Part shown: piece after piece, positions 4,153 to 27,840 of the stretch
How positions within the stretch are numbered: the first letter of the stretch is position 1
Layout of the letters: each line of letters begins with the position of its first letter
NCBI GenBank assembly: GCA_965247095.1
Contig: OZ251997.1
Span: 4,288,001 to 4,352,000, forward strand
Origin: Candidatus Multivorans sp.
GTDB taxonomy: Bacteria; Acidobacteriota; Thermoanaerobaculia; Multivoradales; Multivoraceae
Length of the DNA: 64,000 nt
Direction: 5' to 3'
The notes under the pieces: model-generated
Told to the model about the DNA's origin: nothing
Database searches by the model: none
The model's input: only the letters and a program-made list of their open reading frames with translations
Made by a program: the position numbers and the translations under genes

Positions 4153-4547
4153 TCAGGCGACGGAAACGGGCGGAATCTCGTCTGGGCCGAGGCCCTTCTC
4201 CAGGAGGTAGTCCCGGATCCGCTCAAGAAAAGACCTTGCGCGGTGGTGTTCGGCTCGAGCGTCTTCGCCAGAGAAGTGAGCGAACCACTCTACGTGAGAT
4301 CGGTTGCCCATTGGGGTTCGATCTCTCCGGTTTGTACCAGGTGGAGGCCGAACATGCTCCGCAGGCCTGAGTGAGTGGATGTCTCTATGTCTTGAACGCA
4401 CAGAGCCGCCTTGGCAGCGTGGAAGATGGCGTAGTAGGAAGTGGTGACCGTCTCTTCCTCGTGGCCGTCCTCGCGCATCAGGATCTCGGATGCGCGGAGC
4501 GACTGCAGGGCGCGCTCCCACTCTGCGACGACCGTGGGTCGGTTCAC
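4153..4547 (-). pseudogene. HEPN-domain toxin (COG1895/UPF0332-like) with internal deletion and frameshift
   Basis: The N-terminal frame (SYYAIFHAAKAAL...THSGLRSMFGLHLV...WATDLT*) stops at 4290. The HEPN C-terminus (VEWFAHFSGEDARAEHHRARSFLERIRDYLL) continues in another frame to 4153. The Rx3DY segment is missing. Confidence 0.75.
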
Positions 4548-4888
4548 AGTACCGTCACGCCGTCACGATCGACGGATGCCCTGTACGCGGAGCGAAGCTC
4601 CTTTAGTGTGTCCCACTCTTCTTCCGTGTACGCCATGATCGAGGGCGCGATCGGCGTAGCCGCAGCGAGGTCGTAGCCGATGCGTCGGAGTTTCCGTTGA
4701 AGGTCGGCGGCTCCGTTAGCGACCAGGAGCAGGATGTCGAGGTCGCTTTCTTCGTGGGCGTCGCCACGGGCCTTCGAGCCGTAGACGACCATTCGCCGGA
4801 CCACGTCCGCGTACTCTTCCCGGAGCGCCGCGCGGTACTCGTCGAGCCAAGTCTGTTCTTCGGGGTCGAGCGTGAGCATAGTCTGCAC
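4544..4888 (-). CDS. Minimal nucleotidyltransferase (MNT) antitoxin
   Basis: YGSKARGDAHEESDLDILLL is the GSx10DxD motif. Overlaps the HEPN start. A TAGAAT -10 box lies upstream at 4930-4935. Confidence 0.9.
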   Translation of the reverse strand: MQTMLTLDPEEQTWLDEYRAALREEYADVVRRMVVYGSKARGDAHEESDLDILLLVANGAADLQRKLRRIGYDLAAATPIAPSIMAYTEEEWDTLKELRSAYRASVDRDGVTVL

Positions 4889-7675: not shown

Positions 7676-8866
7676 ATGGACCCGATCCGGAACCCCTACA
7701 GCCCAGGTGCCGGCAGTCCGCCGCCCGCACTCGTAGGTCGCGATGCTGAGCTTGAGATCATCCGTGTCGCGCTCGAGCGTCTTCGGCTCGGCCGTTCCGC
7801 CAAGAGCGTGATTCTGACTGGCCTGCGCGGCGTCGGGAAGACGGTCCTCTTGCGGGAGTTTCGTCGCCTCGGCCAAGAGCGGGACTGGGTCTGCCAGCCG
7901 CTTGAGGCCAGCGAGGGGATGCGACTCCCCCAAGCTGTGGCCGAACTGGTGCGCAAGGTGCTCTTGCGGCTTTCACCGGCGCAGAATCTGGCCGAGCGAG
8001 CGCGGCGGGCGCTCGGCGTGCTCAAGTCGTTCCAGATGCGTTGGAACCTTCCCGACGGCGGTGACGTCACCGTCGGCCTGGATCCCGTTCCCGGTTGGGC
8101 GGATTCCGGGCTCCTGGACGAGGACCTCGGTGGCCTGTTCACAGAGGTCGGCGAAACCGCACGCGAGCGAGGGAAGGGCGTTCTGGTCACCTTGGACGAG
8201 GCGCAGTACCTGAAACGGAAGGACTTGGGCGCCCTGATCGTTGGTCTGCACCAGGTGAATCAGGAGCAGCTACCGTTTCTGGTGGTCGCTGCCGGCCTGC
8301 CGTCGGTGCCCGCGCTCGCGGGCGAAGCGAAGTCCTATGCGGAGCGCCTGTTCGACTTCCGGTCCATCAGCACTCTGAACGACGTCGATGCCAGAGCGGC
8401 CCTGGAACAGCCCGCGATGGAGGAGGAAGTCACCTGGCAGCCGGCGGCGCTCGACCGGATCGTCAGCGAGACGAAGGGGTATCCGTACTTCTTGCAAGAG
8501 TTCGGCAAGCAGACGTGGAACATGGCCGAAGGCCCTGGCAGGATCACCGCCGCCGATGTCGATGCCGCGGTTCCGACTGTCGTTGATGAACTGGACACCG
8601 GCTTCTTTCTCGTCCGGATCGACCGGACGACGGATGCGGAGCGCGAGTATCTGGTCGCCATGGCTTCATTCGGGAAGGGCCCCTACTCGTCCGGCGGTGT
8701 CGCCGCGAAGTTGGGGAAGGACACGCCGGGAGTGGCCTCACTACGCGACAAGCTGATCAAGAAGGGGCTGTGCTACTCGCCCCGTCATGGCGAGATCGAC
8801 TTCACCGTGCCTCTGTTCGACGACTTCGTCCGCCGTCGCTTGCGGGACGCGCAAAGAAGAACGTGA
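7676..8866 (+). CDS. AAA_16/STAND-like P-loop ATPase with probable C-terminal winged helix
   Basis: NPYSPGAGSPPPALVGRD; Walker A GLRGVGKT; Walker B LVTLDEAQ; GYPYFLQ; C-terminal RDKLIKKGLCYSPRHGEIDFTVPLF. Confidence 0.9.
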   Translation: MDPIRNPYSPGAGSPPPALVGRDAELEIIRVALERLRLGRSAKSVILTGLRGVGKTVLLREFRRLGQERDWVCQPLEASEGMRLPQAVAELVRKVLLRLSPAQNLAERARRALGVLKSFQMRWNLPDGGDVTVGLDPVPGWADSGLLDEDLGGLFTEVGETARERGKGVLVTLDEAQYLKRKDLGALIVGLHQVNQEQLPFLVVAAGLPSVPALAGEAKSYAERLFDFRSISTLNDVDARAALEQPAMEEEVTWQPAALDRIVSETKGYPYFLQEFGKQTWNMAEGPGRITAADVDAAVPTVVDELDTGFFLVRIDRTTDAEREYLVAMASFGKGPYSSGGVAAKLGKDTPGVASLRDKLIKKGLCYSPRHGEIDFTVPLFDDFVRRRLRDAQRRT

Positions 8867-8944
8867 TCGCGGTCGCGCCCTACTCGGTGGCTGCGAAAGC
8901 GGCGAAGCGGAACTCCCGGAAGGTTCGCTACCCCGGCCGTCGCC

Positions 8945-9400
8945 TCAGTTCGCGCACAGTCGGGGTTGCCGCAGCAGCCAGCGGCGGCATTCGGATCCCT
9001 TTCCCTCCGGGTACACCTTGCCACGCGGGTCGGCAAGGTGTTTCTCGTTCTTGAAGTCCTCGCGCAGGGCCTCGTCGCGCGAGTAGAGGAGCCTCGCCCC
9101 GCTCAGCCGGGCAAGGGCGAGAACGTGCTGGTCGTTGGATCGAACGGTCTCCTGGGAAGCCAACACGTGCGCTTCCTCGTTCACCAGAGCGTCCGGAATG
9201 TCCTTGGCGCTGCCTCGGAGCAAAGCCTGACGCAGCCATTCTCTGAACGATTCGTGACTGGTAAGTTCCTGGCGCAAGCGGCCGCCTACGGTCAAGCGCC
9301 CCCTACCCGACTCGATCCAGAGCCTGAACTCCCTCGCTCCGGGTGGGGGGTCACTCGTGAACACGGCGGAAACCGCGCTCGCGTCGAGAATTGCGCACAC
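8945..9400 (-). CDS. PIN-like domain protein (putative RNase toxin)
   Basis: Acidic residues in PIN order: ILDAS, RQEL, SNDQHVLALA, LYSRDEAL. Starts 5 nt after the ATPase stop. Confidence 0.7.
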   Translation of the reverse strand: MCAILDASAVSAVFTSDPPPGAREFRLWIESGRGRLTVGGRLRQELTSHESFREWLRQALLRGSAKDIPDALVNEEAHVLASQETVRSNDQHVLALARLSGARLLYSRDEALREDFKNEKHLADPRGKVYPEGKGSECRRWLLRQPRLCAN

Positions 9401-9405
9401 GACCG

Positions 9406-10773
9406 CTACAGCCCGATCGACCGATTCGTCTCTTCCATGAAGAACCGGCGGTAACTGGGCGGCGCGCCCAGAATGTTCCCGGCGTCATCAATCCGTAGAG
9501 AGTGGATGCGCACCTCCAACTCCCAGCGCTCGAAGAACAGAATCGAGACGTCTTCGGGTTTCAGACCGGTGGTTCCGTCGCGGATGTCCATGCGCACCCG
9601 GTCGATCAGGTGGTCACCGTGGGTCTCGACGATCAACTGCTTCCCGTGCGCGGCCACGCTGCAGAAGAGCGAGCCGAGAGCGGCTTGGGCGCTTGGATGG
9701 AGGTGGACCTCCGGTTGCTGCAGGAGGAACATGCCTGGCGCATCCGAGCGGAGGAGCTCCGTGATGACAGGAAGCACCTGACTGACGCCATAGCCCACGT
9801 CGGTCAGATTCCTCCACGGTCCCTTGAGCCGCCGGCTTCCCGATTTTCTGACCTGAATCTGGAAGGGCTCGCTGCTCGTCTTCCCGAGGCGCCTGACGCG
9901 CATCTCGTCGAAGAGTCCTGAAGACTGTCCGAAGTCTTCGAGGGCGCGGTGCAATGCCCTCCAGTTCCCCTGGCTGCGTTGCGCCATGTCCGCGAGGTAC
10001 ATGGGAACGGCTTCTCCCTCGGGATCTCGGGTCAAGCGTGATGGGTCATAGGTGCGGCGTGGCTTTGAACGGACCGGTGCGCTTGCATAGGGTTGGCCGT
10101 GAGACAACACGCTAGTGCCGAGAACGGCGATTCTCATTATGTGCTTGCGGTCTTCCGCGGTAGGGAGTCTTGGGCCGCACAGGCTGATCCAGCCCGAATC
10201 TGACGCGTTCCTGTCGCCGTTCTTCCCGGATAGCAGAGTATCCAGCACGAAGATCAAGGGTGTCAGAATGCGCCGCTCATAGAAGGGAAGGCTGGGGTCG
10301 AAATCGGGTTTGAGGTTGCAGCTCCAATGCCCGTTCGAAGTCCCGACAGTGACTTCCTCGTCATGCACATCGAGGTGGATGAACGCATCGCGGTAGGAGA
10401 CATGTCTCTTGCTGAGTGCTGGTTGGTTGCGATCTCGCGCGAACGTGAAGTCGAAGGAGCACTCTTCCTTCCGGCGCGAAGGATCCTCAGTCGGTGGGAG
10501 GACGTTGGCGGTGTACCCGGCCTCGAAGGCGGTTGCGCGACTGCCCCTCGCTCCTCGGTGATGCGCGATCTCGTCGAAGCTGCCGAGATCGTATGGGGCT
10601 TCCTTGAAGTCCGGCAGTTCGTGGCGGTAGCCGAGATCCCACAGTGCGCGGATCAGCGCCAGGAAGGAGGTCTTGCCGGTGCTGTTCTCGCCGACGAGGA
10701 GAGTGAGCGGGGCCAGCCGCGCGGTTTGTTCGTCGCGAAAGCAGCGGTAGCCGCGGAGTCTGATCTCGTTCAT
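9406..10773 (-). CDS. ABC-type (AAA_21/AAA_15, DUF3696-like) ATPase
   Basis: LRGYRCF...LAPLTLLVGENSTGKTS (Walker A); signature-like DVGYGVSQVLP; FLLQQPEVHLHP; IVETHGDHL. Start at ATG 10773; the ORF-track extension overlaps imuB. Confidence 0.9.
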   Translation of the reverse strand: MNEIRLRGYRCFRDEQTARLAPLTLLVGENSTGKTSFLALIRALWDLGYRHELPDFKEAPYDLGSFDEIAHHRGARGSRATAFEAGYTANVLPPTEDPSRRKEECSFDFTFARDRNQPALSKRHVSYRDAFIHLDVHDEEVTVGTSNGHWSCNLKPDFDPSLPFYERRILTPLIFVLDTLLSGKNGDRNASDSGWISLCGPRLPTAEDRKHIMRIAVLGTSVLSHGQPYASAPVRSKPRRTYDPSRLTRDPEGEAVPMYLADMAQRSQGNWRALHRALEDFGQSSGLFDEMRVRRLGKTSSEPFQIQVRKSGSRRLKGPWRNLTDVGYGVSQVLPVITELLRSDAPGMFLLQQPEVHLHPSAQAALGSLFCSVAAHGKQLIVETHGDHLIDRVRMDIRDGTTGLKPEDVSILFFERWELEVRIHSLRIDDAGNILGAPPSYRRFFMEETNRSIGL

Positions 10774-10924
10774 GGGTCGTTGACTTCTTGGCGCGGCGGC
10801 CAGCGCCGGCGGGACCGTGCCGGCTGTGAGATGTCTGTTCCGATCCTGTTGTGCCGCTGGGGGTGGGTGCCGGTGGGGTGTTCGGCTGACCTTGGTGCCA
10901 CCACGCCCCAGACCAGCCGCTACC

Positions 10925-12475
10925 TTAATCGTACACCCCGTCCGCGAACCACCGCTCCGACCTCCGGTCGCGGTAGATCCGGCACACGGCGCCGTTCCGC
11001 AGTTCCACGTCCCAGTAGTCCCGCAGGGCCGGGGCCTCTCGCCACCAGCCCTCCTCGATCTCCCAGGGACCGGCGGCGGTGCGGACGGGGCCCTCGATGC
11101 GGACGTGGCGTTCATCGCTCGGCAGGGGGTTGATCTGCACCGGTTCGGGGCAGGGCGTGGAGGCCTCGACCGTCAGCACCTCGACCTCGAGTGGCGGCCG
11201 CAGGGTGCGGACCGCCAGCATGCCGCGGCCCGGACGGGGTTCGAGCCGGATGCGTGGCGGTGGGGGCGGGTCGTAGTCGGCCAGCCGGAAGCGTTCCGGC
11301 AGGTGGCCGTTCCTGGTGCGTGGCGAGCCGACCCGGTTCGGGCCGAGCAGGGCGAGCAGCCGGGCGGTGACGGCGGCCAGACGGTCGGGCGACAGGGCGG
11401 CCGGACCGAGCAGGCTGAGTTGAGCTTGGCGCGGTACATCGGGGTGGGCCGCTAGCTGCATGCCGAGAATCGGCGCTCGCGGTGGCGCCGCCTCCAGGTT
11501 GAGACGGATCAGGGACAGCAGCGTTCGGGCCTCACGCGTGGGCGCCGGCAGCTCGATTGCAAGTTCGTGGAAGCCTTCGGGTTCTAGCTTGAGCGACAGT
11601 TCGAGCCGCTTGCAGCCCATGCCCCGGGCTTCGAGCCGGGCGGTGAGCCGTTCGACCGCGCCGCGGGCGACGAACAGGAACGGTTCCAGGTTGTCGATCG
11701 GCCACTCGAAGGTCTGCGACTCGCGGAAGGTGGGCGGCGGCGGACGGGGAGTGAGCGGCGCCGGATCGACGCCCCGGGCGGCGGCATGGAGCGCCGTTCC
11801 GCGCCCGCCGAGACGGCTGTGGACCTCGCCAGCCGGCAGGCCGGCCAGATCGCCGACGGTGCGCAGGCCCCAGAGCTTCAGCGTGTGGAGGATCTCCTGG
11901 TCGTCGCCGTCCGGCGCCGTGCCGCCGGAACCGCCGCCGCTTTCGAGCAGGGAGTTGAGCGGCAACGGCGCCAGGAACCGGGCTTCGCCGCGTGGCGCCA
12001 CGACGTTCGGCGACCGCGGCAGGGCGGCCGCGGCCCGCGCCGCGAGCTTGCTGCCGGCGATGCCGACCCGCCCGGGCAGGCCGGCGGCATCCATGTCCCG
12101 CATCATCGTCTGGCCGAGGCTGTGCTCGTCATCGACCGCGATGTCGAGGTAGACCATGCCCTCACCGCCGTCCTCGACCCGGGGCGAGAAGGCGCCGGCG
12201 ATCTCGAGCAGCACTTCCTGCGCGGTGTGTTCGCGCTCCGGGTCGCGGACACGGTCGACCAGGCCGGATTCGATGTTCCGGGCCTGGGTCACGGTCAGCC
12301 CCGGCCGCACTCCCGCGCGGCGCGCCAACCGGGAAGCGGCGACGATCCGCGCCGAGGGGCCTTCGTGGACCACGACCGCTTCGCGGGCGAGTTCCGGCGC
12401 CCCCCGCAGGTAGGCCGCCAATGGAAACAACGCCGCCCTGATGCAGGCGATGCGGGACCTGCGTTTAGCCGGCAC
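10925..12475 (-). CDS. imuB: ImuB, catalytically inactive Y-family polymerase
   Basis: AFSPRVEDGGEGMVYLD, WGLRTVGDLAGLP; C-terminal GPWEIEEGWW...RDYWDVEL...W...GVYD; overlaps the imuA end. Confidence 0.93.
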   Translation of the reverse strand: MPAKRRSRIACIRAALFPLAAYLRGAPELAREAVVVHEGPSARIVAASRLARRAGVRPGLTVTQARNIESGLVDRVRDPEREHTAQEVLLEIAGAFSPRVEDGGEGMVYLDIAVDDEHSLGQTMMRDMDAAGLPGRVGIAGSKLAARAAAALPRSPNVVAPRGEARFLAPLPLNSLLESGGGSGGTAPDGDDQEILHTLKLWGLRTVGDLAGLPAGEVHSRLGGRGTALHAAARGVDPAPLTPRPPPPTFRESQTFEWPIDNLEPFLFVARGAVERLTARLEARGMGCKRLELSLKLEPEGFHELAIELPAPTREARTLLSLIRLNLEAAPPRAPILGMQLAAHPDVPRQAQLSLLGPAALSPDRLAAVTARLLALLGPNRVGSPRTRNGHLPERFRLADYDPPPPPRIRLEPRPGRGMLAVRTLRPPLEVEVLTVEASTPCPEPVQINPLPSDERHVRIEGPVRTAAGPWEIEEGWWREAPALRDYWDVELRNGAVCRIYRDRRSERWFADGVYD

Positions 12476-13349
12476 GCCTCAGCACCTCGGCGGGCGAGCC
12501 GGAGCGGCTGGTTTCCGTCGATCGAGGCGGTGCGACGGGCAGGGGGCGCCGCAGGCTGCCGGTGAGAACGCGCAGTTCGACGTCGGCGGCCGCGCCCGGC
12601 CGTTCGCCGCGCGACTTGGCGAGTTCCAGGCGGGTCGCGAGTCCGTCGAGCAACCGCGGGCTCCTCGGCGCGGCCTGCGCCCAGAGAGCGCGAACGGGGG
12701 GCGTCTCGCCCCCTGGGAACGCGGGCGTCTCGCCCGCATTCCGGACCGGCGACGTGCGCGATCCCAGGTCGATGATTTTCTGCGGCGCCGTGCCGCCGGC
12801 GCGGTACGGGCTGGCGATCAGCAGTGCCGTCTGATGATCCTCCGCCGCGCGGCGCAGCCGCAGCCACGCGGACTCCTTGCCGCGGCCGCCGGGCACCGGG
12901 GGCAGTCCGAGATCGATCGCGACCAGGGGAAAGCCGCCGCCGATCAGCACTTCGGCGCTGCCCAGCGCCTGCTTCAGCCGCTTGGGCCGCGCCCAGAGCA
13001 GTCGTTCGAGGACGACTCCGGCCCGCGCCGCTGCCTGCGGATCGAAGTGATCTCCCAGATCGACCAGCGCCGCCGATTCACCGCTCTGGGTGGCGCCGGC
13101 CAGAAGCTCCAGCACCAGGGAGAAGCGGCCGCTGCTTCGAGGGCCGACCAGCTCGACCGTCTGCCCGCGACAGATCCCGCCGCCGAGCAACCGGTCGACG
13201 CCAGAAAGCCGCGTGGCGAACAGTTCAGCGTCCGTCTCCTGAATACTGATCGCGGGACTGTCGCCCACCAGCTCCCGCCCGCGCCGGATCTGGCGCACCA
13301 GCGACCGCGGCCACTGCGGGTCGGTGAGAGCTGCGGGCAGGGAAGTCAC
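12465..13349 (-). CDS. imuA: ImuA, RecA-like mutagenesis protein
   Basis: TRLSGVDRLLGGGICRGQTVELVGPRSSGRFSL, ALVDLGDHFDP, AGVVLERLLWARP. Start uncertain (GTG 13349 or TTG 13409). Confidence 0.9.
   Translation of the reverse strand: MTSLPAALTDPQWPRSLVRQIRRGRELVGDSPAISIQETDAELFATRLSGVDRLLGGGICRGQTVELVGPRSSGRFSLVLELLAGATQSGESAALVDLGDHFDPQAAARAGVVLERLLWARPKRLKQALGSAEVLIGGGFPLVAIDLGLPPVPGGRGKESAWLRLRRAAEDHQTALLIASPYRAGGTAPQKIIDLGSRTSPVRNAGETPAFPGGETPPVRALWAQAAPRSPRLLDGLATRLELAKSRGERPGAAADVELRVLTGSLRRPLPVAPPRSTETSRSGSPAEVLRRAG
12692..12739. repeat. Two tandem REP-like palindromes inside the imuA reading frame
   Basis: GAACGGGGGGC-GTCTC-GCCCCC followed by TGGGAACGCGGGC-GTCTC-GCCCGCAT; translated as NAGETPAFPGGETPPV. 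Confidence 0.7.
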
Positions 13350-13487
13350 GGCGCCGAGGGACGCGAAACGCGAGAAGCGGGAAGGTGGGAAGAGAGCATC
13401 ATAGCGCAACTAGGGCGTAAACAGGAAGCTCACTTGCTGCGGCGTTCGCCGCTGCGCATAGGCCCGTACAACGGCCACTGATGGATC

Positions 13488-13633: not shown

Positions 13634-14791
13634 ATGGAACGTCCAACACCGGGTCGCTACGAAGTCACCGTCGGGGGAGGCGAGCAGGTGCGCGCCTTCA
13701 TTCCAGCGCCCCTGCCGCCGCAACCCCCGCTGAACCTCGAAGGCCCCCTGCTGCGATCCCTGGAAGCCGCCAGTCTCGCCCTTGGGCGGCTGGAGGGAGC
13801 GAATCAACTCCTGGAGCCGACGCTCTTCGTCTACTCCTACGTCCGCAAGGAGGCGGTGCTGTCCTCCCAGATTGAGGGCACTCAGTCGTCGCTCTCCGAT
13901 CTCCTGCTGTTCGAGCTCGACCAGGCGCCGGGCGTGCCGCGCGCCGATGCGGCCGAGGTCTCACGCTACGTTGCTGCCCTGGAACACGGCCTGAAACGCC
14001 TTGGCGAGAACTTCCCCCTCTCGAACCGTCTGATCCGTGAACTACACGGCATCCTGCTGTCTGCCGGCCCCGGCGCGAGCAAGGCTCCGGGTGAGTTTCG
14101 CCGCTCCCAGAATTGGATCGGTGGCACCCGTCCTGGCAACGCCGTCTTCGTGCCACCTCCGCACCTCGCTGTGCCCGACTGCATGGCGGACCTTGAGCGC
14201 TTTCTGCACGCCAGGGACGACGGTTTGCCGACCTTGGTTCAAGCTGGCTTGGCCCATGTGCAGTTCGAGACGATCCACCCCTTCCTCGACGGCAACGGCC
14301 GCGTAGGCCGGCTGCTCATCACCCTGCTGTTGTGTGAAGCCGGGGTGCTGAGCCAGCCGCTCCTCTACCTCAGCGTCTACTTTAAACGCCACCGGGACCA
14401 GTACTACGAACTGCTCGACCGCGTCCGTCACACCGGCGATTGGGAGTCCTGGCTGGCGTTCTTTCTTGAGGGTGTACAAGAGACGGCCGAGAATGCCGCG
14501 GCGACAGCGCGGCGCCTCACCGAACGGTTCACGGCCGACCGGGAACGCATCGCAGCCGAGAGTCGCCGAGCCGGCTCGGCGCTTCGCGTCCACGAGGCTT
14601 TCCAGGAACGTCCTATCCTCTCCATTCCCGAGACGTGCAAGCGCACCGGCCTCTCGTTTCCGGCCGTTTCTGCCGCTCTGAGACTCCTGGAACGCGCTGA
14701 CCTCGTCCGAGAGATCACCGGCTTCAGCCGGAACCGGGTGTACGTCTACAGCGAGTATCTGAGGATCCTGAACGAGGGCGTGGAGACCTAG
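13634..14791 (+). CDS. Fic/DOC family protein with N-terminal inhibitory helix and C-terminal wHTH
   Basis: Canonical HPFLDGNGRVGR; KEAVLSSQIEGT; C-terminal LVREITGFSRNRVYVY. Confidence 0.95.
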   Translation: MERPTPGRYEVTVGGGEQVRAFIPAPLPPQPPLNLEGPLLRSLEAASLALGRLEGANQLLEPTLFVYSYVRKEAVLSSQIEGTQSSLSDLLLFELDQAPGVPRADAAEVSRYVAALEHGLKRLGENFPLSNRLIRELHGILLSAGPGASKAPGEFRRSQNWIGGTRPGNAVFVPPPHLAVPDCMADLERFLHARDDGLPTLVQAGLAHVQFETIHPFLDGNGRVGRLLITLLLCEAGVLSQPLLYLSVYFKRHRDQYYELLDRVRHTGDWESWLAFFLEGVQETAENAAATARRLTERFTADRERIAAESRRAGSALRVHEAFQERPILSIPETCKRTGLSFPAVSAALRLLERADLVREITGFSRNRVYVYSEYLRILNEGVET

Positions 14792-14952
14792 GAGGAGAAG
14801 GCGGGAGGGCAGGCGCCCGCGACACTCGTGCGCCCCGCGTTTCGGGTTACCATCGTCGTCGCCCGGTTCGGCGCGTAAGCGGCCGACGGGCGGTCCTGAC
14901 CTTGCCAGCATGAGCGGACCCTCTCGCGGCGCCGATTGCGGTGGAGGAGACG

Positions 14953-15666
14953 ATGACGACGAGGAATGCACCTGAAGAGAGCCGCGGCGCTCCCGGTACG
15001 CCGGAGGAGATCTGGGCGATTCTGCGGCACACTTCCGACCTGATGGCGGAGAGCGATGCCAGGATGGTCGAGGTCAGAGAGGGCATGAAGGAGACCGATC
15101 GGCTGCTGAAGGCACAGGCGAAGGAGACCGACCGGCTGCTGAAGGAACAGGCGAGGGAGGCTGACCGGCGGTTCAGGGAGACCGACCGCCAGATGCAGGA
15201 GACGGACCGGCGGCTCAAGAAGGCGGAAGGCCTGTTCACGTCCCAGTGGGGCAAGTTGATGGAGAGCTTGGTCGAGGGCGACCTCGTACCCCTGCTGAAG
15301 AAGCGGGGTATCGCGGTGGAAGGGACTTTGCAGAGATTCGAAGGGAGGCGGAACGGACAGCACTTCGAGATCGACATCCTCGCTTTGAACAGCACGGAAG
15401 TTGTCGTCGTCGAGGTCAAGACGACACTCAGGCCCGGAGACGTCACCCGCTTCGTGGAGAAGCTGTCGCGGTTCGCGGAGTGGTTCCCGGCGTACCGGGA
15501 ACATCGGATCTACGGCGCGGTGGCGTATCTCCAGAGCGACAGCTCGGTAACGAAGTACGCGGAGCGGCAAGGGCTGTTCGTCATCCGTGCCACCGGCAGC
15601 AGCGCCAGCATCGTCAACGAGGCGGACTTCGAACCCCGCGTCTTCTCGGGTTCGCTTCCCGCTTGA
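14953..15666 (+). CDS. Coiled-coil repeat + PD-(D/E)XK nuclease-like protein (DUF3782/DUF1626-like)
   Basis: ETDR repeats, then WGKLMESLVE...FEIDILALN...VVVEVKTTL. RBS GGAGGAG before ATG 14953. Confidence 0.8.
   Translation: MTTRNAPEESRGAPGTPEEIWAILRHTSDLMAESDARMVEVREGMKETDRLLKAQAKETDRLLKEQAREADRRFRETDRQMQETDRRLKKAEGLFTSQWGKLMESLVEGDLVPLLKKRGIAVEGTLQRFEGRRNGQHFEIDILALNSTEVVVVEVKTTLRPGDVTRFVEKLSRFAEWFPAYREHRIYGAVAYLQSDSSVTKYAERQGLFVIRATGSSASIVNEADFEPRVFSGSLPA
15088..15216 (+). repeat. Intragenic tandem repeats (2 x 33 nt + 3 x 21 nt)
   Basis: aaggagaccga(t/c)cggctgctgaagg(c/a)acaggcg twice, then three degenerate 21-mers encoding xE(T/A)DRxx. Confidence 0.85.
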
Positions 15667-15693: not shown

Positions 15694-17637
15694 GCCGAAG
15701 TTCTGGTGCCCAAGTCGTGAAACTCCTGCAATGACGGTGTTTTTTTGGATATGGGTGTGTTGTCTACTGGGTACGGTTGGTCATGGTCGGTAGGTTGAGG
15801 AGGCTGAATGCCTCGGCCTGGAGGGGTGTCGGTCTGGCCAGGACATCCGCGGTGGCGTTCTCGTGGCCCTGCATTTGGACGCGATTTCGGGTCAGGGTGG
15901 CCAGGTCGGCGAGCAGGGTCTGGAAGCTGTGGACGGGTAGTCCTTGCGGTGTGCGCTTGGCGCTCGCCTTGGCGCGGGCTGCGGGGGACCGGCGAGCCGG
16001 CTGGACGGGCGAGGAGCGTTGGTCCCTTGGGTCGTCGTCGTCGAAGAGCAAGGGAGCGAGAAGGCGTCGCATGTGCCACTCGACGTAGTAGGCGAGCATG
16101 CACAGAAAGACGTGGGCTCGCACTCTGTCGGCCAGGCGATGGTGGACGGGCCGCACCTTGAGGTCGACGCTCTTGTAGCTGCGGAAGGCGCGCTCGACGC
16201 GGCTGAGGCTCTTGTAGGCCCGGACCGCCTCCGGCGCCGGGAGGTCGGCCTCGGCCACGTTGGTGCGGATGACGTAGAAGCCGTCGAGGGCGGCCTCTTC
16301 GGCGATCCGCGTCTGATTGCGGCAGTAGCGGAAGCCGTCTTCGTCGATCTCGGTGTCGAAGTGCTTGCCGACCTTGTGGGCGCGCAGGGCGCGGTCGGCG
16401 CGGGCGGCGATCTTGTCCTTGCCCCGCAGGGGGCGCTGTGGGCGCCTTGTCGCTTCGGCGACGGCCTCCAGCTTGCGCTCGGTGGCGTCGAGAAGCTCCT
16501 GGCGCTTGCGGCGCCGCCTGGTTGCCAGCAGCGGGTTCCGGCACACGATCAGCCGCTCTGCGGGGTACAGCTCGGGGGCGCTCAGTTCGGCCATGTCCCG
16601 TTCGTCGAAGATCGACAGTTGCAGGTGGCCCTGCTGCACCAGGGTGCGGATCGCGGGCGCGCGCAGGGCGGTGATCCACGACAGGCCGCCGGGTTCGAGG
16701 TCTTCGCGGATGCGGGCGCTGGTGAGCAGGCCCCGATCGCCGACCATGACCACGCGGTCGAGCGAGAAGCGCTCGTTGAGCTTCTGCACTTGGGCACTCA
16801 GCGTGCCGGGATCGGCGGTGTTGCCTTCGAAGACCTCGACCGCGACCGGGCATCCGTCCCGGTTGCAGAGCAGCGGGAAGACGATCTGGGGCTTGCCCGG
16901 CTTGCCGTCCTTGGAGTACCCGCGCCGGGCGAGGGCGCATTTCGCGCCCTCGAAGTAGACCGAGGTCACGTCGCACAAGACGAGGCAACCGTCATTGAGG
17001 TGCTGTTCGGCCAGCCGTCGCTCGATGCGTTGCTGCCGTTTGAGCAGCCAATCCATGGCGGAGTAGAGCTCGTCGGCGCCCGCCTCCTCGACTCCGAGTT
17101 CCTCGCCGAGGGTGTGGGACGAGGTCTCGCTTGAGAGTCCGCGTGCGGTGGCGAGCTTGGAGCGAGGTTCGAGGATGCGGGCGATGATCATGGCGAGCGC
17201 GAGCGCCCGTTCGCGCGAGGGTCGGCGGTCGAGGAGTGTCTCGAGGCCGCGTCGTCGCGCGGCGCCGAGCGTGGCGGCGACATGACCGTGGGGCCTGGAG
17301 CGCAGGATTTCGAAGGCGGAGTCGAGGGAGGGCAGTGCGACGCCGCCCTTGAGGAGAGTGCGCAGGCCCTCAACGAGATGATCGGGCCACTTGGAGAGGT
17401 TGGCGAGTGTCCGTTTGCAGACTCTTCCGTGCTCTCGGTAGGACTCGCGCAGGAGCACGGCGGGTGGCGAGTTGCGGTTGGGTACGCGTTCGATGTACAT
17501 GGCTTCTATTGTAGCTTCATCATATCTCCATGTCTACCGCACTTGACCATGCTACATGGGTACACTATGCGGCCAGGAAACCGCAAAACCCTAGGCGCGG
17601 CAACGATCCGCGACACTCAGGCCCCCAGAACTTCGGC
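15694..17637 (-). mobile_element. IS1634-family insertion sequence, copy A
   Basis: Terminal IRs GCCGAAGTTCTGG...CCAGAACTTCGGC; CTAG on both flanks (15690-15693, 17638-17641). Confidence 0.92.
15764..17500 (-). CDS. IS1634-family DDE transposase
   Basis: MYIERVPNRNSPPAVLLRES N-terminus; DVTSVYFEG, VGDRG, VERAFRSYK (D-D-E); VRAHVFLCMLAYYVEWHMR. Confidence 0.95.
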   Translation of the reverse strand: MYIERVPNRNSPPAVLLRESYREHGRVCKRTLANLSKWPDHLVEGLRTLLKGGVALPSLDSAFEILRSRPHGHVAATLGAARRRGLETLLDRRPSRERALALAMIIARILEPRSKLATARGLSSETSSHTLGEELGVEEAGADELYSAMDWLLKRQQRIERRLAEQHLNDGCLVLCDVTSVYFEGAKCALARRGYSKDGKPGKPQIVFPLLCNRDGCPVAVEVFEGNTADPGTLSAQVQKLNERFSLDRVVMVGDRGLLTSARIREDLEPGGLSWITALRAPAIRTLVQQGHLQLSIFDERDMAELSAPELYPAERLIVCRNPLLATRRRRKRQELLDATERKLEAVAEATRRPQRPLRGKDKIAARADRALRAHKVGKHFDTEIDEDGFRYCRNQTRIAEEAALDGFYVIRTNVAEADLPAPEAVRAYKSLSRVERAFRSYKSVDLKVRPVHHRLADRVRAHVFLCMLAYYVEWHMRRLLAPLLFDDDDPRDQRSSPVQPARRSPAARAKASAKRTPQGLPVHSFQTLLADLATLTRNRVQMQGHENATADVLARPTPLQAEAFSLLNLPTMTNRTQ

Positions 17638-21974: not shown

Positions 21975-23408
21975 CTACGCGGCGTGCGATGTGTTTCGTT
22001 CCCGGGCGACCGCTGCTTCGAGGTGCGGTGGCGGCCGCCACAGGCATTCCATGACGTAAGGCAGGTCCATCGGTGTGCCGTCCCAAGCGGGCATGGATTC
22101 TCTGCCGGTGATCATGATGCCGGCGTCCTCCAAGTGGCGGATCAGCTCATGGGCAGGGTACGAGCCGACTGGCGGCGGCGCGGGGCTGCGCTCCAGCGGC
22201 CGACCACGTCTGTCGAGGAACTGGACGGCGCGTTCGTTGTTCATCTTCACGCTGAAGCCGCCTTCGTAGAGCAGGCGGTGGTGCCGCCGGCAGAGGAGCA
22301 CGAGGTTCGAGAGCTTTGTTTCGCCGCCGTCAGCCCAGTGGACGATGTGGTGAGCGTCGCAGTGCTTCGACGTGCAGCCGGGGAAGCGACAACCCTGGTC
22401 GCGGAACTCCAGGGCCCGCCGGATCGGCGGCGGGATCGTGCGGGTCTTGCGGCCAACGCTCAGGATCTGGCCGTTCCGGTGGGCCATCGAGACTCTGCCG
22501 GCGTCGCGGGCGATCCTCCGGGCTGTTTCCGCGGAAACCGGGATAAGGGAGCTCCCGAGCCAGGCGCCGTTGACCGATCCTGGCAACGCGGGCGTCTCGC
22601 CCCCATCCGTTGGCGTTCCCGCGGGAACGCCTGCCCTGGACGTTCCCGCGGGAACGTGAGTCCGGTTGTCAGCCGTCGCGCTCTGCTGCGCCCTCGGCTC
22701 TTCCCCGTTGACATGAACCACGACCTGGTAGCGGTCGCCGCTCGACCCCGGATCGAGCCCGCCCTTGAGCGCGCTCTCGGCAACGAGCGCAAGAGCGTCG
22801 GCGCGCACTTTGCCGACTGGCGGTTTGTCCTCCTGCTGCTCTGCGTAGAGCTTGTCGCTCGCCGCATCGAGTGCCTTCATCAGGACTTCGCCCGCCTCCG
22901 GCGCCAGACAACCGCGGATCACGAACATGCCGTTCTCGTCGATGTGGGTCGTCACATGGCTGGAAGCGTCGCGCAACTCGTCGTCGTGGGCCTCGACCGT
23001 GCGGTCGATCCTTCGCCAGCTTCTCACCATTCGTTCGATCTGGGCCGCGGTCCCGGTCTTGCCCAAGTCCACCAGCGACTGCTCGGTGTCCGGCGCGGCG
23101 ATACGGGTGAGCGCCCTCACCTTGGAGTAGGAGAGTTCGCCCTTGCTCATTGCCTCACTCAACAAGGGCAGGTCACCCAGGGCTCGGGCGACTCGCACCC
23201 GCTCACGGGCCGCGCCGGGCGCTAGCCCGATTCGCCAGGTGAGCCAGTGGGCGCAAGTGAGGAAGCCGCAGCTCCAGCCTTCCTCTTCATCGAACTTGCG
23301 GATCAGGACGAGCAGCTCATAGGTCGCCGCGTCAATGCGCGCAGCGAGCGTGGCGATCTCTTCGCCCATGCGCTCCTTGCTGCTCATGCCGGTTTGTTTG
23401 TCAATCAT
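21975..23408 (-). CDS. DUF222-domain HNH endonuclease (REP13E12-like), possibly degenerate
   Basis: GFLTCAHWLTWRIG...ARERVRVARAL; GRKTRTIPPPIRRALEFRDQGCRFPGC...DAHHIVHWADGGETKLSNLVLLCRRHH. Start taken at ATG 23408. Confidence 0.9.
   Translation of the reverse strand: MIDKQTGMSSKERMGEEIATLAARIDAATYELLVLIRKFDEEEGWSCGFLTCAHWLTWRIGLAPGAARERVRVARALGDLPLLSEAMSKGELSYSKVRALTRIAAPDTEQSLVDLGKTGTAAQIERMVRSWRRIDRTVEAHDDELRDASSHVTTHIDENGMFVIRGCLAPEAGEVLMKALDAASDKLYAEQQEDKPPVGKVRADALALVAESALKGGLDPGSSGDRYQVVVHVNGEEPRAQQSATADNRTHVPAGTSRAGVPAGTPTDGGETPALPGSVNGAWLGSSLIPVSAETARRIARDAGRVSMAHRNGQILSVGRKTRTIPPPIRRALEFRDQGCRFPGCTSKHCDAHHIVHWADGGETKLSNLVLLCRRHHRLLYEGGFSVKMNNERAVQFLDRRGRPLERSPAPPPVGSYPAHELIRHLEDAGIMITGRESMPAWDGTPMDLPYVMECLWRPPPHLEAAVARERNTSHAA
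22525..22657. repeat. Three perfect palindromes plus one REP-like element within the DUF222-HNH gene
   Basis: GTTTCCGCGGAAAC (22525-22538), GGCGTTCCCGCGGGAACGCC (22612-22631), ACGTTCCCGCGGGAACGT (22640-22657); REP-like TGGCAACGCGGGC-GTCTC-GCCCCCAT (22581-22606). Confidence 0.9.
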
Positions 23409-23456
23409 TTGGTTGCCACCCTGTGGTGGGACCCGACGGTCCGGATTGGCACGTAT

Positions 23457-23531
23457 CGGAGGCCCTGAAACCGGCCGTTCGGGGCCTCCGCCGAGGCCAA
23501 GGAATATAGCATGAGTTCTTGAGGAACACAA
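23457..23531 (-). promoter_or_regulatory. Sigma70 promoter and structured 5' leader of the DUF222-HNH gene
   Basis: TTGTGT-17 nt-TATATT with extended TG; leader hairpin CGGAGGCCC...GGGCCTCCG at 23457-23490. Confidence 0.65.
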
Positions 23532-23767
23532 GCAATTGAGGTCGATGCAGATGCCCGGTTGGCGTCCTCCTGGGCTCCGCTCAATCGGAACCGGTGAACC
23601 GCGGACTCGCGACGGGGATGGCGTCCGGGCTGGGCCGGTTGGCGTCCTGGCCGACCCGGCGGCGAGCTTGCTTCTGGCGGGCAAAGCCCTAGACTCCAGG
23701 CTCTCGTTCTCGCCTACGCGGCGACGTTTCGGTCGCCCCCCGCCTTCAATGCTCGATTGAGACGACC

Positions 23768-26700
23768 TTGCCCGGCCAACTCTTCACCCAGTACTTCCTC
23801 ACCGACGGTATTCGGGACACGGCGGAGTGGCGGGAGTCGGTCCGTCACCCGGAGGCCTTCGCCGAGTTCCAGGCGAGGGTCCCCACTCTCCTCGCGGCGT
23901 TCAGCCGCTCCAGCGATCCGAACGAGGCGGTCACCGAGGCGGATCTGATCCGGCCCATCCTGGAGCTGCTCGGATGGTCGCACTACCTGCCGCAGCAGGC
24001 GACGGCGCGGGGCGAGGACGTTCCGGACCACCTGCTGTTTGAAGATGCCGAATCGAAGGCCCGTGCCAACCAACGTACCGTTCCCGGCGACCGCTATCTC
24101 GACGCTCTCCTGGTCCAGGAGAGCAAGCGGTTCGGTTTGCCTCTGGATGGCCGGGACCGTGCCGGCCGCTTGTACGTGGGCACGCCGCATGGGCAGATCC
24201 TCCGGTACCTGGCCACGGCCGAGAGCGTCTCGGATGGCCGGATCCGTTGGGGCATCCTGACCAACGGCGATCGCTGGAGGCTGTACGACCACCGGGCGCG
24301 TCCTCGCGCCAGCGGGTACTTCGAGGCGAACCTCCCAGCCCTGTTGGAACAGGGCGACGAAGAAGGTCTGAGAAGGTTCTTTCTCCTGTTCGCTCGTCGG
24401 GCGTTCACGCTGCAGGACGGAGCGACGGCGACCTTCATCGAAAGGGCGATCGCAGAGGGGAAGCGCTATGAGGAGAAGGTCGCCGAGGACCTCTCCCAGG
24501 CCGTCTTCGACGATGCCTTCCCCCGACTTCTGAACGCGCTTGCCAAAGAGGCCCCGTCGGCCGATCTGCGGGAGATCCGCGACGCCGCGCTGATCTTCCT
24601 CTACCGGCTTCTGTTCGTTCTCTACGCCGAGGACCGGGGTCTCTTGCCGGTGAACGACCCCAGGTACGACGACTACGGTCTGAGGCGGCGAGTGCGGGAC
24701 GACATTGCCCGCCGGATGGCCGAAGGGGACACGTTCTCGAGCACGGCCGGCAACTACTACAACCGTCTGATGGAGCTCTTCCGGCAGATCGACGGCGGTG
24801 ACCGGTCGATCGGCCTACCGCCTTACAACGGCGGTCTGTTCGCCGAGGAAGCGGCGCCTCTGCTGGCAAGGGTTCGTCTCGCAGACAGTGAGACGGCCCC
24901 GGTCGTCTTCGGGCTCAGCCATTTCGGCCACAGGGGCGATGGTCAGGCCAAGTTCGTCAACTACCGCGACATGTCGGTTCAGCAGCTTGGTTCGATCTAC
25001 GAGCGGCTCCTTGAGCGCGAGCCGGTCCGAGATCCGGCAGGCAACGTCTCGATCCAGCTCAACCGTTTCGCGCGGAAGGACAGCGGCAGCTTCTATACGA
25101 GCCAGGAACTGGTCGACCTGATCGTCGAGCAGACGCTGAAGCCCCTGGCGGAAGAGCGTCTGCGGGCGTTCGAGGCGAAGGCCGAGGACCTCAGCAGCGA
25201 CCGCCGGACCAAGGCCGACCGCCTGGCGGATCTGGTGCAGATCGACCCGGCGGAGGCCGTGTTGGATCTCAAGGTGCTCGATCCCGCCATGGGAAGCGGC
25301 CACTTCCTGGTCACGGCCGTGGACTTCCTTTCCGACTATGTGGCGGAACTCATCGAGTACGTGCCGGCGGTGCCGGACTGGCTTGACGAGCCGTACGAAT
25401 CGCCTCTGGTGGGTCGGATCGCTCGTATTCGGCAGGGCATCCTCCATCGCGCCGCCGAATCGGAATGGGTGATCGACGAGGCGCAGCTCACCGACCAGGC
25501 GATCATCCGGCGAATGGTGCTCAAGCGCTGCATCTACGGAGTAGACAAGAACCGCCTGACGGTGGAACTGGCCAAGGTGTCGCTGTGGCTGCACAGCTTC
25601 ACTGTCGGTGCGCCGTTGTCATTCCTGGACCATCACCTGCGTTGCGGCGATTCCCTCGTCGGACTCAGGGTCGGCGATGGAACGGATGAGCTTCGCCGCC
25701 TCGGCGGGCTGATCGCCTCCAGCGCCATCCAGGGCGCGGAGAACGCGGTCGCCGGGATGGAACTGATCGAAGAGATGTCCGACGCGGACGTGGCGGAGGT
25801 TCGGGAGTCGGCCAGGCTCTTCGAGGGTGTCGACCAGGCGACCTCCGAGTTGCGCCGCGTGCTCGATTGCCTGTGCGCCTTGCGTTGGCTGACCGCGGGT
25901 ATGAAGAAGAGACAGCGCAACGAGTTCGAGACGCGTGGACTGCTCGAAGTGGTTGGCGCCTATCCAGCCAAGGCGTACTCACTCCTCGCAGAGGGGCCGG
26001 GAGCAATTGATCCGACATCGGCGGCCGGTTCGGATGACGCCGGCCTCTCGAGATTCGCCGAGCTATGGCGTGATGCCCGCGCCCTGGCCGAACGCGAGAC
26101 CTTCCTGCATTGGGAGGTGGCTTTCCCGGGCGTGTGGCGACACTGGCAGCGGCGGAGCCCGGAGGGTGGGTTCGACGCGGTGATCGGCAATCCGCCCTGG
26201 GACCGGATCAAACTCCAGGAAGTGGAGTGGTTCGCGACCCGTGATCCGGAGTTGGCCCGCGCTCCCACGGCGGCACAGCGCCGTATTGGCATCAAGAAAC
26301 GCCGAAACCGGGGCGAACCGTTGGCCGCCGCGTTCGACGAGGCGAAGCGGCGCGCCGACAGCCTGCTGGCGTTGTTCCGGACTTCGGGCGACTATCCGTT
26401 GCTCGGCAGGGGCGACATCAACCTGTACTCGCTGTTCGTCGAGCGGGCGCTGAAGGTGCTCAAGCCGGGCGGCCTGGTGGGGCTGCTCGTGCCTTCAGGC
26501 ATCTACGCCGACAGGACGGCCGCGCCGTTCTTCCAATCGATGTCTAGCGGGGGACGAGTGGCCGGGTTGTTCGACTTCGAGAATCGACGGTTGGGCGCCG
26601 GACAGCCGCCGTTCTTCCCCGACGTCGATTCGCGGTTCAAGTTTTCGCCCTGGTCCTCGGCGGTGATGAACGGTCGTTCGCGGAGACTCGGTGCGGGTTC

Positions 26701-27840
26701 TTCCTGGACAGCGCAGGAGATCTGAGCGACCCGGAACGGTGCTTCCCCCTGAGTCCGGTCGACTTCACGCGGGTCAATCCGAACACCGGCACCGCGCCCG
26801 TGTTCCGCACCCGCCGGGACGCCGAGATCACGCGGGGCATCTACGAACGTCATCCGGTGCTGGTGGACCGATCCGGGGGTGGGGAGCGGCGGGTTTGGCC
26901 GGTTCGCTACAACCGAATGTTCGACATGACGAACGACTCCCACCTCTTCAGGACTGCTGCTGAGCTTGAGGCGGCCGGCTGCTACCCGATTGCCGGGAAT
27001 CGGTGGAAGCGAGGCGAGGAAGAGTGGCTGCCCTTGTATGAGGGAAAGATGGTCCAGGCCTACGACCACCGGGCCGCGAATGTCGTGGTCAACCCTGAGA
27101 ACCTGAACCGGCCTGCACAGCCGCGGGAGGCCACGTTGGCGGAGCACGTCGATCCCTGCTGGTCGCCTGATCCGCAGTTCTGGGTGGCCGCCGATGACTT
27201 AGCCTGGCCCGAAGGTCTCGACTGGGCCGTCGCCTTCAAGGACGTCACGGCGCCGACCAACGTCCGCACCATGATCGCCGCTCTCGTGCCTCGCTCCGGC
27301 GTGGGCAACACGCTTCCGTTGCTCCTTCCGGGTGGCGTTGGCCCAGCTCCGGGCAACGCCGAGGCACTGTGGCTGCTCGCGGCGAACTTCAACTCGTTCG
27401 TCTTCGACTTCGTCGCGCGACAGAAGGTCCAGGGCCAGCACTTGAACTGGTTCATCGTCGAGCAACTGCCGGTGATCGGTCCTAAGGACTATGAGCGCCG
27501 ATTTGGGGACAAGACCGCTCGGGATCTCGTCCGTGACCACGTCCTGCGTCTGACCCGCACAGCGCACGACATGGAGCCGTTCGCGAATGACCTCGGGTAC
27601 GACGGGCCGGCCTTCGACTGGGACGACGAGGAGCGTCGACATCTGAAGGCATGGCTCGATGCGCTGTACTTCCTGCTCTATGGCCTGTCTCGGGACGAAG
27701 CAGAGCACGTGCTTGGGACGTTCCCTATCGTCCGGCGGCAGGACGAGGCGGAGTTCGGGCGGTATCGGACGCGAGATCTGGTCCTCGCCTACGTGAACGC
27801 GCTGGACGCTGGGGATCCAGAGACGGCAGTCGCGATCTAG
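23768..27840 (+). pseudogene. Type IIG (Eco57I-like) fused restriction-modification enzyme split by a 1-nt frameshift at ~26645
   Basis: N-terminal PD...ESK nuclease (VPDHLLF...VQESKR); MTase motifs DPAMGSGHFL and GNPPW. After RFKF the protein-like sequence continues in another frame (ALVLGGDERSFAETRCGFFL...NPNTGTAPVFRTRRDAEI) into ORF 26800-27840, the target-recognition region. Confidence 0.85.

Follow-up and report, generated by a model that had tools for sequence, protein, structure and literature searches.

A two-gene module of an NsnB-type ABC ATPase and a PIN-domain protein in Candidatus Multivorans sp.: a candidate anti-phage lineage akin to HEC-03 and the NsnB-NsnC core of Menshen

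Closest described systems and the ATPase-PIN gene pair

This work concerns a pair of adjacent genes, encoding an ABC-type ATPase and a small PIN-domain protein, in a stretch of 64,000 nucleotides (nt) from Candidatus Multivorans sp. (GenBank assembly GCA_965247095.1, contig OZ251997.1, positions 4,288,001 to 4,352,000 of the forward strand), and this whole stretch is referred to here as the window. The described systems to which the pair is closest are Menshen and HEC-03, and the first of these, Menshen (NsnABC), reportedly comes from the 2022 work of Millman et al. According to the accessible parts of the survey by Li et al. (2025, NAR, PMC12065111), the NsnA component of Menshen is a sensor of the ParB-DUF262 type, NsnB is an ABC ATPase that ends in a DUF3696 tail and shows a degenerate Walker B motif together with a GxG signature, and NsnC consists of an inactive PIN adaptor (inPIN), in which the catalytic residues are lost, followed by a C-terminal nuclease. 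In the AlphaFold 3 (AF3) models of NsnB4-NsnC2 presented there, the PIN-like domain of NsnC is clamped by two DUF3696 tails. As the same parts of the paper indicate, the survey was seeded from DUF262 and, due to this, a two-gene form lacking NsnA would escape its collection. For PARIS and Septu, as summarised in these parts of PMC12065111, the ABC ATPase is thought to restrain a small nuclease until it is triggered.

HEC-03 (Hma-embedded candidate 03) is described in the available portion of a preprint (Payne et al. 2024, 10.1101/2024.01.29.577857) as an ABC ATPase together with a VapC-like PIN protein, embedded in Hma systems; this portion also reports that HEC-03 cut phage plaquing and that both genes were needed. 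The database PADLOC-DB v2 holds the models PDLC04147 (PIN) and PDLC04148 (ATPase) for this system. A bona fide HEC-03 was found by us on an Aeromonas salmonicida plasmid (locus L081), where the ATPase is matched over its full length by HEC-03B (expect value (E) 1e-133, 445 bits, residues 1-458) and the gene after it, of 177 amino acids (aa), by HEC-03A (3e-23), which shows that in the PADLOC naming HEC-03B is the ATPase and HEC-03A the PIN protein. A preliminary description of the window, made from its sequence, had regarded the pairing of such an ATPase with a PIN nuclease as a candidate undescribed system and did not recognise it as a named one. This view does not hold, since the pairing is already described in HEC-03 and mechanistically framed in Menshen, which uses the same type of ATPase.

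The features of the pair are listed below in window coordinates, which are used throughout; the related loci are numbered L001 to L080 (the best 80 found) and the plasmid reference loci L081 to L083.

9406..10773, minus strand: ABC ATPase gene, 455 aa, ATG at 10773; NsnB / HEC-03 / PDC-M55 type with a DUF3696-like tail
8945..9400, minus strand: gene for a stand-alone PIN-domain protein, 151 aa, GTG start; predicted RNase effector
9401..9405, minus strand: spacer of 5 nt between the ATPase stop and the PIN GTG; operon junction, read from the sequence
10669..10692, minus strand: Walker A, G-E-N-S-T-G-K-T, ATPase residues 28-35; K34 in 81/81 ATPases
10090..10512, minus strand: hypervariable central insert, ATPase residues 88-228; candidate sensor region, from identity, GC content and substitution rates
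9709..9729, minus strand: atypical Walker B, F-L-L-Q-Q-P-E, ATPase residues 349-355; QQPE in 81/81 ATPases
9409..9564, minus strand: C-terminal DUF3696-like tail, ATPase residues 404-455, from Pfam and family matches
10774..10924, minus strand: intergenic stretch from the imuB stop to the ATPase start, coordinates read from the sequence

Both open reading frames (ORFs), the 5-nt gap between them and their minus-strand orientation agree with the preliminary description. The pair is a real and tightly conserved two-gene module and, by sequence comparison, its ATPase/PIN family is a separate, uncatalogued lineage of a known kind, which is not called as a system by PADLOC-DB v2; the PIN protein is without a match among its models, and for the ATPase the highest-scoring model is NsnB. 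Based on the analyses described here, the pair would be a two-gene anti-phage module of the abortive-infection type within the family of DUF3696-tailed ABC ATPases, sister to HEC-03 and to the NsnB-NsnC core, and the probability that we give to this reading is about 0.6.

Conservation of the pair and properties of the two proteins

Species-representative genomes were scanned with an alignment of the ATPase, and this gave at least 600 stretches, at least 552 of them encoding a relative, from which the best 80 were kept. A PIN profile match is present directly downstream of the ATPase and on the same strand in 77 of these 80 loci (76 strong matches and one weak). With the exclusion of L012, whose sequence ends 143 nt past the ATPase gene, 79 loci were informative, and upon their inspection an intact PIN gene was found directly downstream in 73, a disrupted PIN gene in three (viz. 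L008 with an in-frame stop, L024 with a frameshift and L050 lacking the first 13 residues), a remnant in two and nothing of the PIN gene in one (L051). The remnants are the last 12 codons in L002 (7402-7437) and the first 18 codons in L007 (7380-7433), and the ATPases of both loci are intact. These two loci are Thermoanaerobaculia relatives, in which the effector has been deleted and the ATPase retained. The start motif of the PIN protein can be located in 70 loci, and all but one of these (69) have a spacer of -17 to +23 nt between the two genes, with a mode of 3 nt (28 loci). No flanking gene family is common to more than 13 of the 80 loci and, hence, no third component was detected and the module consists of two genes. 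The coupling of the two genes that was assumed in the preliminary description is thus upheld by the 73 intact pairs.

All of the best 80 loci are from metagenome-assembled genomes and they are distributed over many higher taxa. The closest relatives among them are from Thermoanaerobaculia (65-76% identity), most of the others show 52-58% identity, and the other taxa represented include Dehalococcoidia, Caldilineaceae, Latescibacterota, Binatia, Nitrospinota, Nitrospirales, Entotheonella, Alpha- and Gammaproteobacteria and Rhodothermales. In the PLSDB plasmids and GenBank phages, tblastn searches with the PIN protein gave no match, and searches with the ATPase identified only relatives of about 24-39% identity.

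The two ORFs are of the coding type, with a GC content at third codon positions (GC3) of 0.74-0.78, and their homologue sets are large (ATPase, at least 7930 matches; PIN protein, 302). A longer ATPase ORF of 569 aa starting at 11115 was rejected in favour of the 455-aa form, because all homologues begin at M1 of the latter (MNEIRL/MDxITL), and the extension also overlaps the end of imuB. The start of the PIN protein is fixed by an invariant M-C-A-I-L-D N-terminus. The promoter of the pair, if any, would be located in 10774..10924; otherwise the pair would depend upon read-through from imuA'-imuB. A consensus scan of 8700-11100 found no sigma-70-like site in 10774..10924, and the one promoter-like and one terminator-like site that it detected are both within the ATPase gene and at chance level.

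In Pfam searches, the window ATPase is matched by AAA_15 (2.7e-19) and AAA_21 (1e-16), and weakly by DUF3696 (0.0036), with 17.9 bits under a cut-off of 22 bits. However, 29 of the 34 ATPase family members match DUF3696 at E<=0.01 (best 3.9e-7). The preliminary assignment of the protein as AAA_21/DUF3696-like is therefore correct for AAA_21 and for the DUF3696 tail of the family, whereas the window copy itself remains under the threshold for the latter. The search of the window ATPase against PADLOC-DB v2 gave NsnB as the best model (3.1e-44, residues 1-438), followed by PDC-M55A (9e-31) and HEC-03B (2.8e-25, 87 bits), and AriA of PARIS was matched at 1.4e-21 over residues 322-390 only, which contain the ABC motifs. 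The models NsnB, PDC-M55A and HEC-03B are each matched by 34/34 family members, the lowest E-value being that for NsnB. In NCBIfam nothing passed any cut-off for either the ATPase or the PIN protein.

The AlphaFold2 (AF2) model of the ATPase has a predicted local distance difference test score (pLDDT) of 77.4, and its Foldseek neighbours are the heads of Rad50/SMC proteins and PtuA. The region surrounding the Walker A lysine K34 is invariant in the alignment. In the ABC head, Walker B is degenerate and the signature reads GxG where SGG is expected, and the QQPE sequence aligns with IIEEPE of an OLD nuclease, IEEPE of GajA and EQPE of the bona fide HEC-03 ATPase. Because both of the Walker B acidic residues are replaced by Gln, the ATPase probably functions as a switch that binds ATP and hydrolyses it little, if at all.

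The PIN protein is matched by Pfam PF01850 (1.9e-6), with 29 bits over a cut-off of 23.6 bits, and its AF2 model has a pLDDT of 92.9. The top Foldseek matches of this model are VapC toxins and other PIN nucleases (5x3t_B, E 2.7e-4, probability 1.00), with template modelling (TM) scores of 0.58-0.63. When solved structures were searched with the PIN family sequence profile, the best E was 0.21 and none was found at E<=0.1; due to this, the identification of the PIN protein against structures is by fold comparison only. The four acidic residues pointed out in the preliminary description are present and near-invariant, viz. D6 in 73/74, E45 in 73/74, D90 in 74/74 and D109 in 72/74 sequences, and C2, H92 and C149 are invariant (74/74). 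The alpha/beta/alpha fold and the acidic quartet are those of the PIN superfamily, and with this fold and the retention of the D-E-D-D residues, the effector looks to be an active nuclease. In a set of 1.84 billion representatives, the PIN family comprises 1901 clusters of 50% identity at E<=1e-3 and 1355 at E<=1e-10, and its top 150 representatives are nearly all stand-alone proteins of 145-175 aa.

The mean pairwise identity of the ATPases is 25% in the central insert (residues 88-228) compared with 78% on its N-terminal side (residues 1-87) and 75% on its C-terminal side (residues 229-455), and the GC content of the insert is 0.58 versus 0.65 and 0.63 for the N-terminal and C-terminal parts of the gene. 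The AT-richer central part, unrelated to the conserved ends, that was noted previously is therefore real, and its boundaries are now sharpened. The ratio of non-synonymous to synonymous rates (dN/dS; Nei-Gojobori method, 40 close pairs) ranges from 0.15 to 0.95 for the insert, compared with 0.03-0.22 for the flanks, and in the AF2 model the insert forms mostly a beta-rich domain. The ATPase genes of L035 and L053 are 94% identical in their flanks and 37% in the insert, where the synonymous rate (dS) is three-fold that of the flanks. This divergence with raised dS points to cassette exchange, and it suggests that the insert has been exchanged by recombination between otherwise near-identical ATPase genes. 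In these characteristics, the insert appears to behave like a diversifying sensor region.

Genomic neighbourhood

In the window, the pair is located between imuA'-imuB (12465-13409 and 10925-12475) and dnaE2 (3-2333). Besides the pair, the island of about 8.5 kilobases (kb) between imuB and dnaE2 also carries an AAA_16 gene, an S41 peptidase, a glyoxalase-family gene, an MNT/HEPN pair and a TPR protein. The neighbouring features are as follows.

7676-8866, plus strand: AAA_16 ATPase gene, convergent with the PIN gene
4290-4888, minus strand: overlapping MNT/HEPN pair (MNT 4544-4888, HEPN 4290-4547), a classic module of toxin-antitoxin (TA) or defence type
13634-14791, plus strand: Fic/DOC protein with a C-terminal winged-helix domain, divergent from imuA'
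14941-15666: Hjc-like nuclease, in the neighbourhood of the pair
15764-17500 and 28940-30658, minus strand: two IS4-type DDE transposase genes (578 and 572 aa) in direct orientation, 13,158 bp apart
21975-23684: DUF222-HNH gene, 11-15 kb from the pair
23768-26725: MmeI-like type IIG restriction-modification (R-M) gene, 11-15 kb from the pair

The placement of the pair among TA, Fic, R-M and nuclease genes in the preliminary description is thus correct, with the DUF222-HNH and MmeI-like genes at the distance given. The two IS4-type copies have diverged, with 74-80% of the nucleotides identical in the 300-nt stretches that were compared, and between them are found a nucleotidyltransferase, a methyltransferase, a CAAX protease, the DUF222-HNH gene and the MmeI-like type IIG enzyme. 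The AAA_16 gene adjoins the pair also in L003 (75% identity) and in none of the other 79 loci, and for this reason it probably does not belong to the module. In the close relatives L003 and L004 the pair occupies the equivalent imuB-dnaE2 gap, but the cargo is not the same: the gap of L004 is without the AAA_16 and S41 genes, and that of L003 contains a methyltransferase instead. In view of this differing cargo, the gap looks like a hotspot for insertions within an SOS cassette. The MNT/HEPN pair is also present in L004 at the equivalent position (65-66% identity), and the position of the Fic gene is likewise conserved there (85% identity).

For loci L001-L060, 118 of the 156 nearest-neighbour ORFs were scanned against PADLOC at E<=1e-10. 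Matches were obtained for 28 of these 118 proteins, in 21 of the 60 loci, which is a raw, uncorrected count. The models matched are HmaB, HEC-01A, PtuA, type IIG and type III R-M, PDC-M19, PDC-S01 and PDC-S45; the methyltransferase models among them are not specific. Some of the loci have the pair between DUF1156 and DUF499 genes in an Hma-like arrangement. One such Hma-like locus, L011, also encodes another NsnB-like ATPase (454 aa) that ends in a DUF3696 tail, and its stop is abutted by a 173-aa gene (the two at 250-2135). The protein encoded by this gene gives a weak hhalign match to the window PIN family (E 0.001, 115 columns) with D, E, DxH and D in register, and this second pair hints at a wider set of DUF3696 ATPase and PIN pairs.

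Interpretation of the module and comparison with described systems

The anti-phage reading builds directly upon the gene structure, the folds, the conserved residues, the near-obligate co-occurrence, the diversification of the insert, the homology of the ATPase and the frequent defence neighbours, which together support the architecture of an ABC-ATPase sensor and a small nuclease effector proposed in the preliminary description. In the mechanism that we envisage, the ATPase would oligomerise via its ABC head, and in the resting state its C-terminal tail would hold the PIN protein and keep the RNase silent. The AF3 models of NsnB4-NsnC2 provide a structural precedent for such a hold of the tail on a PIN-like domain. 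The hypervariable insert would recognise a phage-derived cue, upon which a nucleotide-dependent rearrangement of the ATPase would release or activate the PIN protein, and the latter would cut cellular and/or phage RNA (tRNA, mRNA or rRNA), with the result that infection would be stopped. The binding between the ATPase and the PIN protein, the trigger, the RNA target and the role in defence are what we infer in this scheme. Predictions of a 1:1 ATPase-PIN complex gave scores of 0.28 and 0.21, which are under the mark of 0.32 and speak neither for nor against binding, and the models for Menshen imply at least two ATPase chains per PIN domain. A more specific proposal, which should be regarded as tentative and somewhat doubtful, is that the pair represents a distinct uncatalogued defence lineage, sister to HEC-03 and Menshen and so far seen in uncultured bacteria only, in which a hydrolysis-impaired QQPE switch, with an exchangeable insert sensing phage, gates an active PIN protein, and which may preserve an ancestral state that preceded Menshen. 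The spread considered in this regard is of at least 552 matching stretches, with the best 80 loci spanning a dozen or more higher taxa, and the active PIN partner would then have become the inactive PIN adaptor of NsnC.

A number of observations weigh against the anti-phage reading or its placement beside HEC-03. The match of the window ATPase to the HEC-03 model PDLC04148 is not of full length and covers residues 272-440 only, and the window PIN protein matches no PADLOC model, PDLC04147 included, at E<=1. The HEC-03 PIN model is matched by only 1/35 PIN family members, at 0.016, and hhalign of the window PIN family with the HEC-03 PIN family gave a probability of 1.9% over 14 columns. No relatedness of these two PIN families is detectable past the first strand, and thus the effectors are homologous in fold class alone. 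In the case of the insert, dN/dS is <1 in 40/40 pairs, and relaxed constraint may also account for its divergence. Further, 39 of the 60 loci show no PADLOC match in either immediate neighbour, and the cycle of a QQPE ATPase could differ fundamentally from that of PARIS or Septu.

Some of these points are also in accordance with a plain TA module, in which a VapC-like PIN toxin is accompanied by the ATPase as an unusual antitoxin or chaperone, and which stabilises the island and has no dedicated anti-phage role. The loci without a defence-model neighbour would be expected under this explanation, the PIN protein is structurally closest to VapC toxins from VapBC pairs, TA-type genes (MNT/HEPN, Fic) are plentiful in the window region, and the retention of the ATPase with the loss of nearly all of the PIN gene in L002 and L007 is as expected from toxin purging. 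However, while the predicted fold and acidic site of the window PIN protein resemble those of VapC toxins, there is no small VapB-type antitoxin upstream of it. The gene at this position, 5 nt away, encodes a 455-aa ABC ATPase with a Walker A motif and a hypervariable insert, rather than a small DNA-binding protein, and the close ATPase-PIN junction is a characteristic of the family. Additionally, the homologous ATPase and PIN pair of HEC-03 is phage-protective according to the available portion of its preprint, and a subset of the loci is embedded in Hma-like defence systems. As TA behaviour and abortive infection are compatible, this explanation overlaps with the anti-phage reading, and as a separate explanation we consider it unlikely, but deserving of some weight.

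It is quite improbable that the pair is a degraded Menshen, consisting of NsnB and a truncated NsnC, from which the NsnA sensor and the C-terminal effector domain of NsnC have been lost. Such an origin would be consistent with NsnB being the best PADLOC model, both for the window ATPase and in the summary of 34 members, and with the PIN-like domain with which NsnC starts, as stated in the accessible parts of PMC12065111. However, no DUF262 match is found within about 10 kb of the pair in the window, 0/118 nearest neighbours from the 60 loci match NsnA or NsnC, and the two-gene form is stable in 73 loci from many phyla. The stand-alone nature of nearly all of the top PIN family matches also argues against a truncation, and the window PIN protein retains the catalytic residues missing from the inPIN domains of NsnC. 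The chance is slighter still that the pair serves the SOS mutasome as an accessory, co-transcribed with imuA'-imuB and with a role in DNA damage or RNA quality rather than in defence. In the window and in L004 the pair is located directly downstream of imuB, on the same strand and inside the imuA'-imuB ... dnaE2 cassette, in L003 it is in the imuB-dnaE2 gap but separated from imuB by about 3.8 kb of other DNA, and between imuB and the ATPase gene no promoter-like site is seen. However, this context is limited to 3/81 loci, all of them mutually close relatives, whereas the remaining loci are in unrelated contexts, and the differing content of the gap among the three loci is that of an insertion hotspot and not of a fixed operon.

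Within the literature searched, no paper was found on this particular ATPase/PIN family, and a preprint (10.1101/2025.07.10.664194) mentions Menshen and contains, in its available portion, nothing on PIN partners. The preliminary description had referred to the pair as PARIS-like, and this comparison is valid, as a distant analogy, for the shared logic of an ATPase with a small effector, but not for membership in PARIS, which was rejected because the AriA models cover residues 322-390 only and the partner is a PIN protein and not TOPRIM/DUF4435. In addition to the weak overlap with AriA, there is one with PtuA of Septu at the N-terminus, and these matches are limited to generic ABC motifs. The effectors of PARIS and Septu are of the TOPRIM/DUF4435 or HNH type, and no DUF3696 tail is present in these systems. 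With the PADLOC candidate PDC-M55, whose PDC-M55A model matches the window ATPase, the pair shares a two-gene operon with the ATPase first, as seen at L083 on a Bacillus plasmid. However, the partner at L083 is a protein of 352 aa that matches PDC-M55B, which the window PIN protein does not.

The relationship to Menshen and HEC-03 is closer, and the pair shares ATPase ancestry and operon logic with both, although it fails the model-based membership for either of them. The ATPase has the tail (with the limit noted for the window copy), the degenerate Walker B and the GxG signature of NsnB, and the partner is of a PIN-type fold in both cases. However, the window partner is a single-domain PIN protein of 151 aa in which D6, E45, D90 and D109 are retained, and not a two-domain NsnC with an inactive PIN and a nuclease. 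Since there is no NsnA gene, any sensing would have to reside in the ATPase insert. As in the window, the ATPase gene at L081 precedes the gene of a small PIN protein, the frames overlapping or nearly abutting, and both are two-gene operons of an ABC ATPase and a VapC-like PIN protein. The two ATPases are of similar size (about 455-470 aa), have a DUF3696 tail, are collinear with the tail included (26% identity, E 5e-30) and have in common the motifs VG(Y/F)GVSQVLP and (E/Q)QPExHLHP. Some loci of the window's family are, like HEC-03, within Hma-like loci. In contrast, Walker B is QQPE in the window family and EQPE in the L081 ATPase, and the PIN proteins are of 151 and 177 aa, respectively. 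The plasmid loci also have a conserved third gene, for an RNA ligase family protein, which the window pair lacks. This gene follows the small gene at L081 (5889-6590) and at L082 (5891-6583), an Azotobacter plasmid locus of the same annotated layout, the PADLOC confirmation of HEC-03 covering L081 only; it is possible that it is a third component or an RNA-repair partner.

No new principle is involved in these results, as the combination of an ABC ATPase with a small nuclease, and specifically with PIN, is already described. What is new here is a well-delimited and widespread lineage, found so far in uncultured bacteria only, whose ATPase has an unusual Walker B and an insert that is swapped. 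The spread of this lineage at about 55% identity over many uncultured phyla, together with the swapping of the insert, makes it a good case for the diversification of sensor specificity. The invariant QQPE is a natural test of whether ATP binding alone, without hydrolysis, is enough for gating an effector, a question which the authors of HEC-03 leave open in the available portion of their preprint (10.1101/2024.01.29.577857). If the pair defends, it would represent a minimal, two-protein form of the Menshen logic with the sensing placed within the ATPase, and it would constitute a third branch of the DUF3696-ATPase defence group comprising HEC-03, Menshen and PDC-M55, which is missed by the current PADLOC models.

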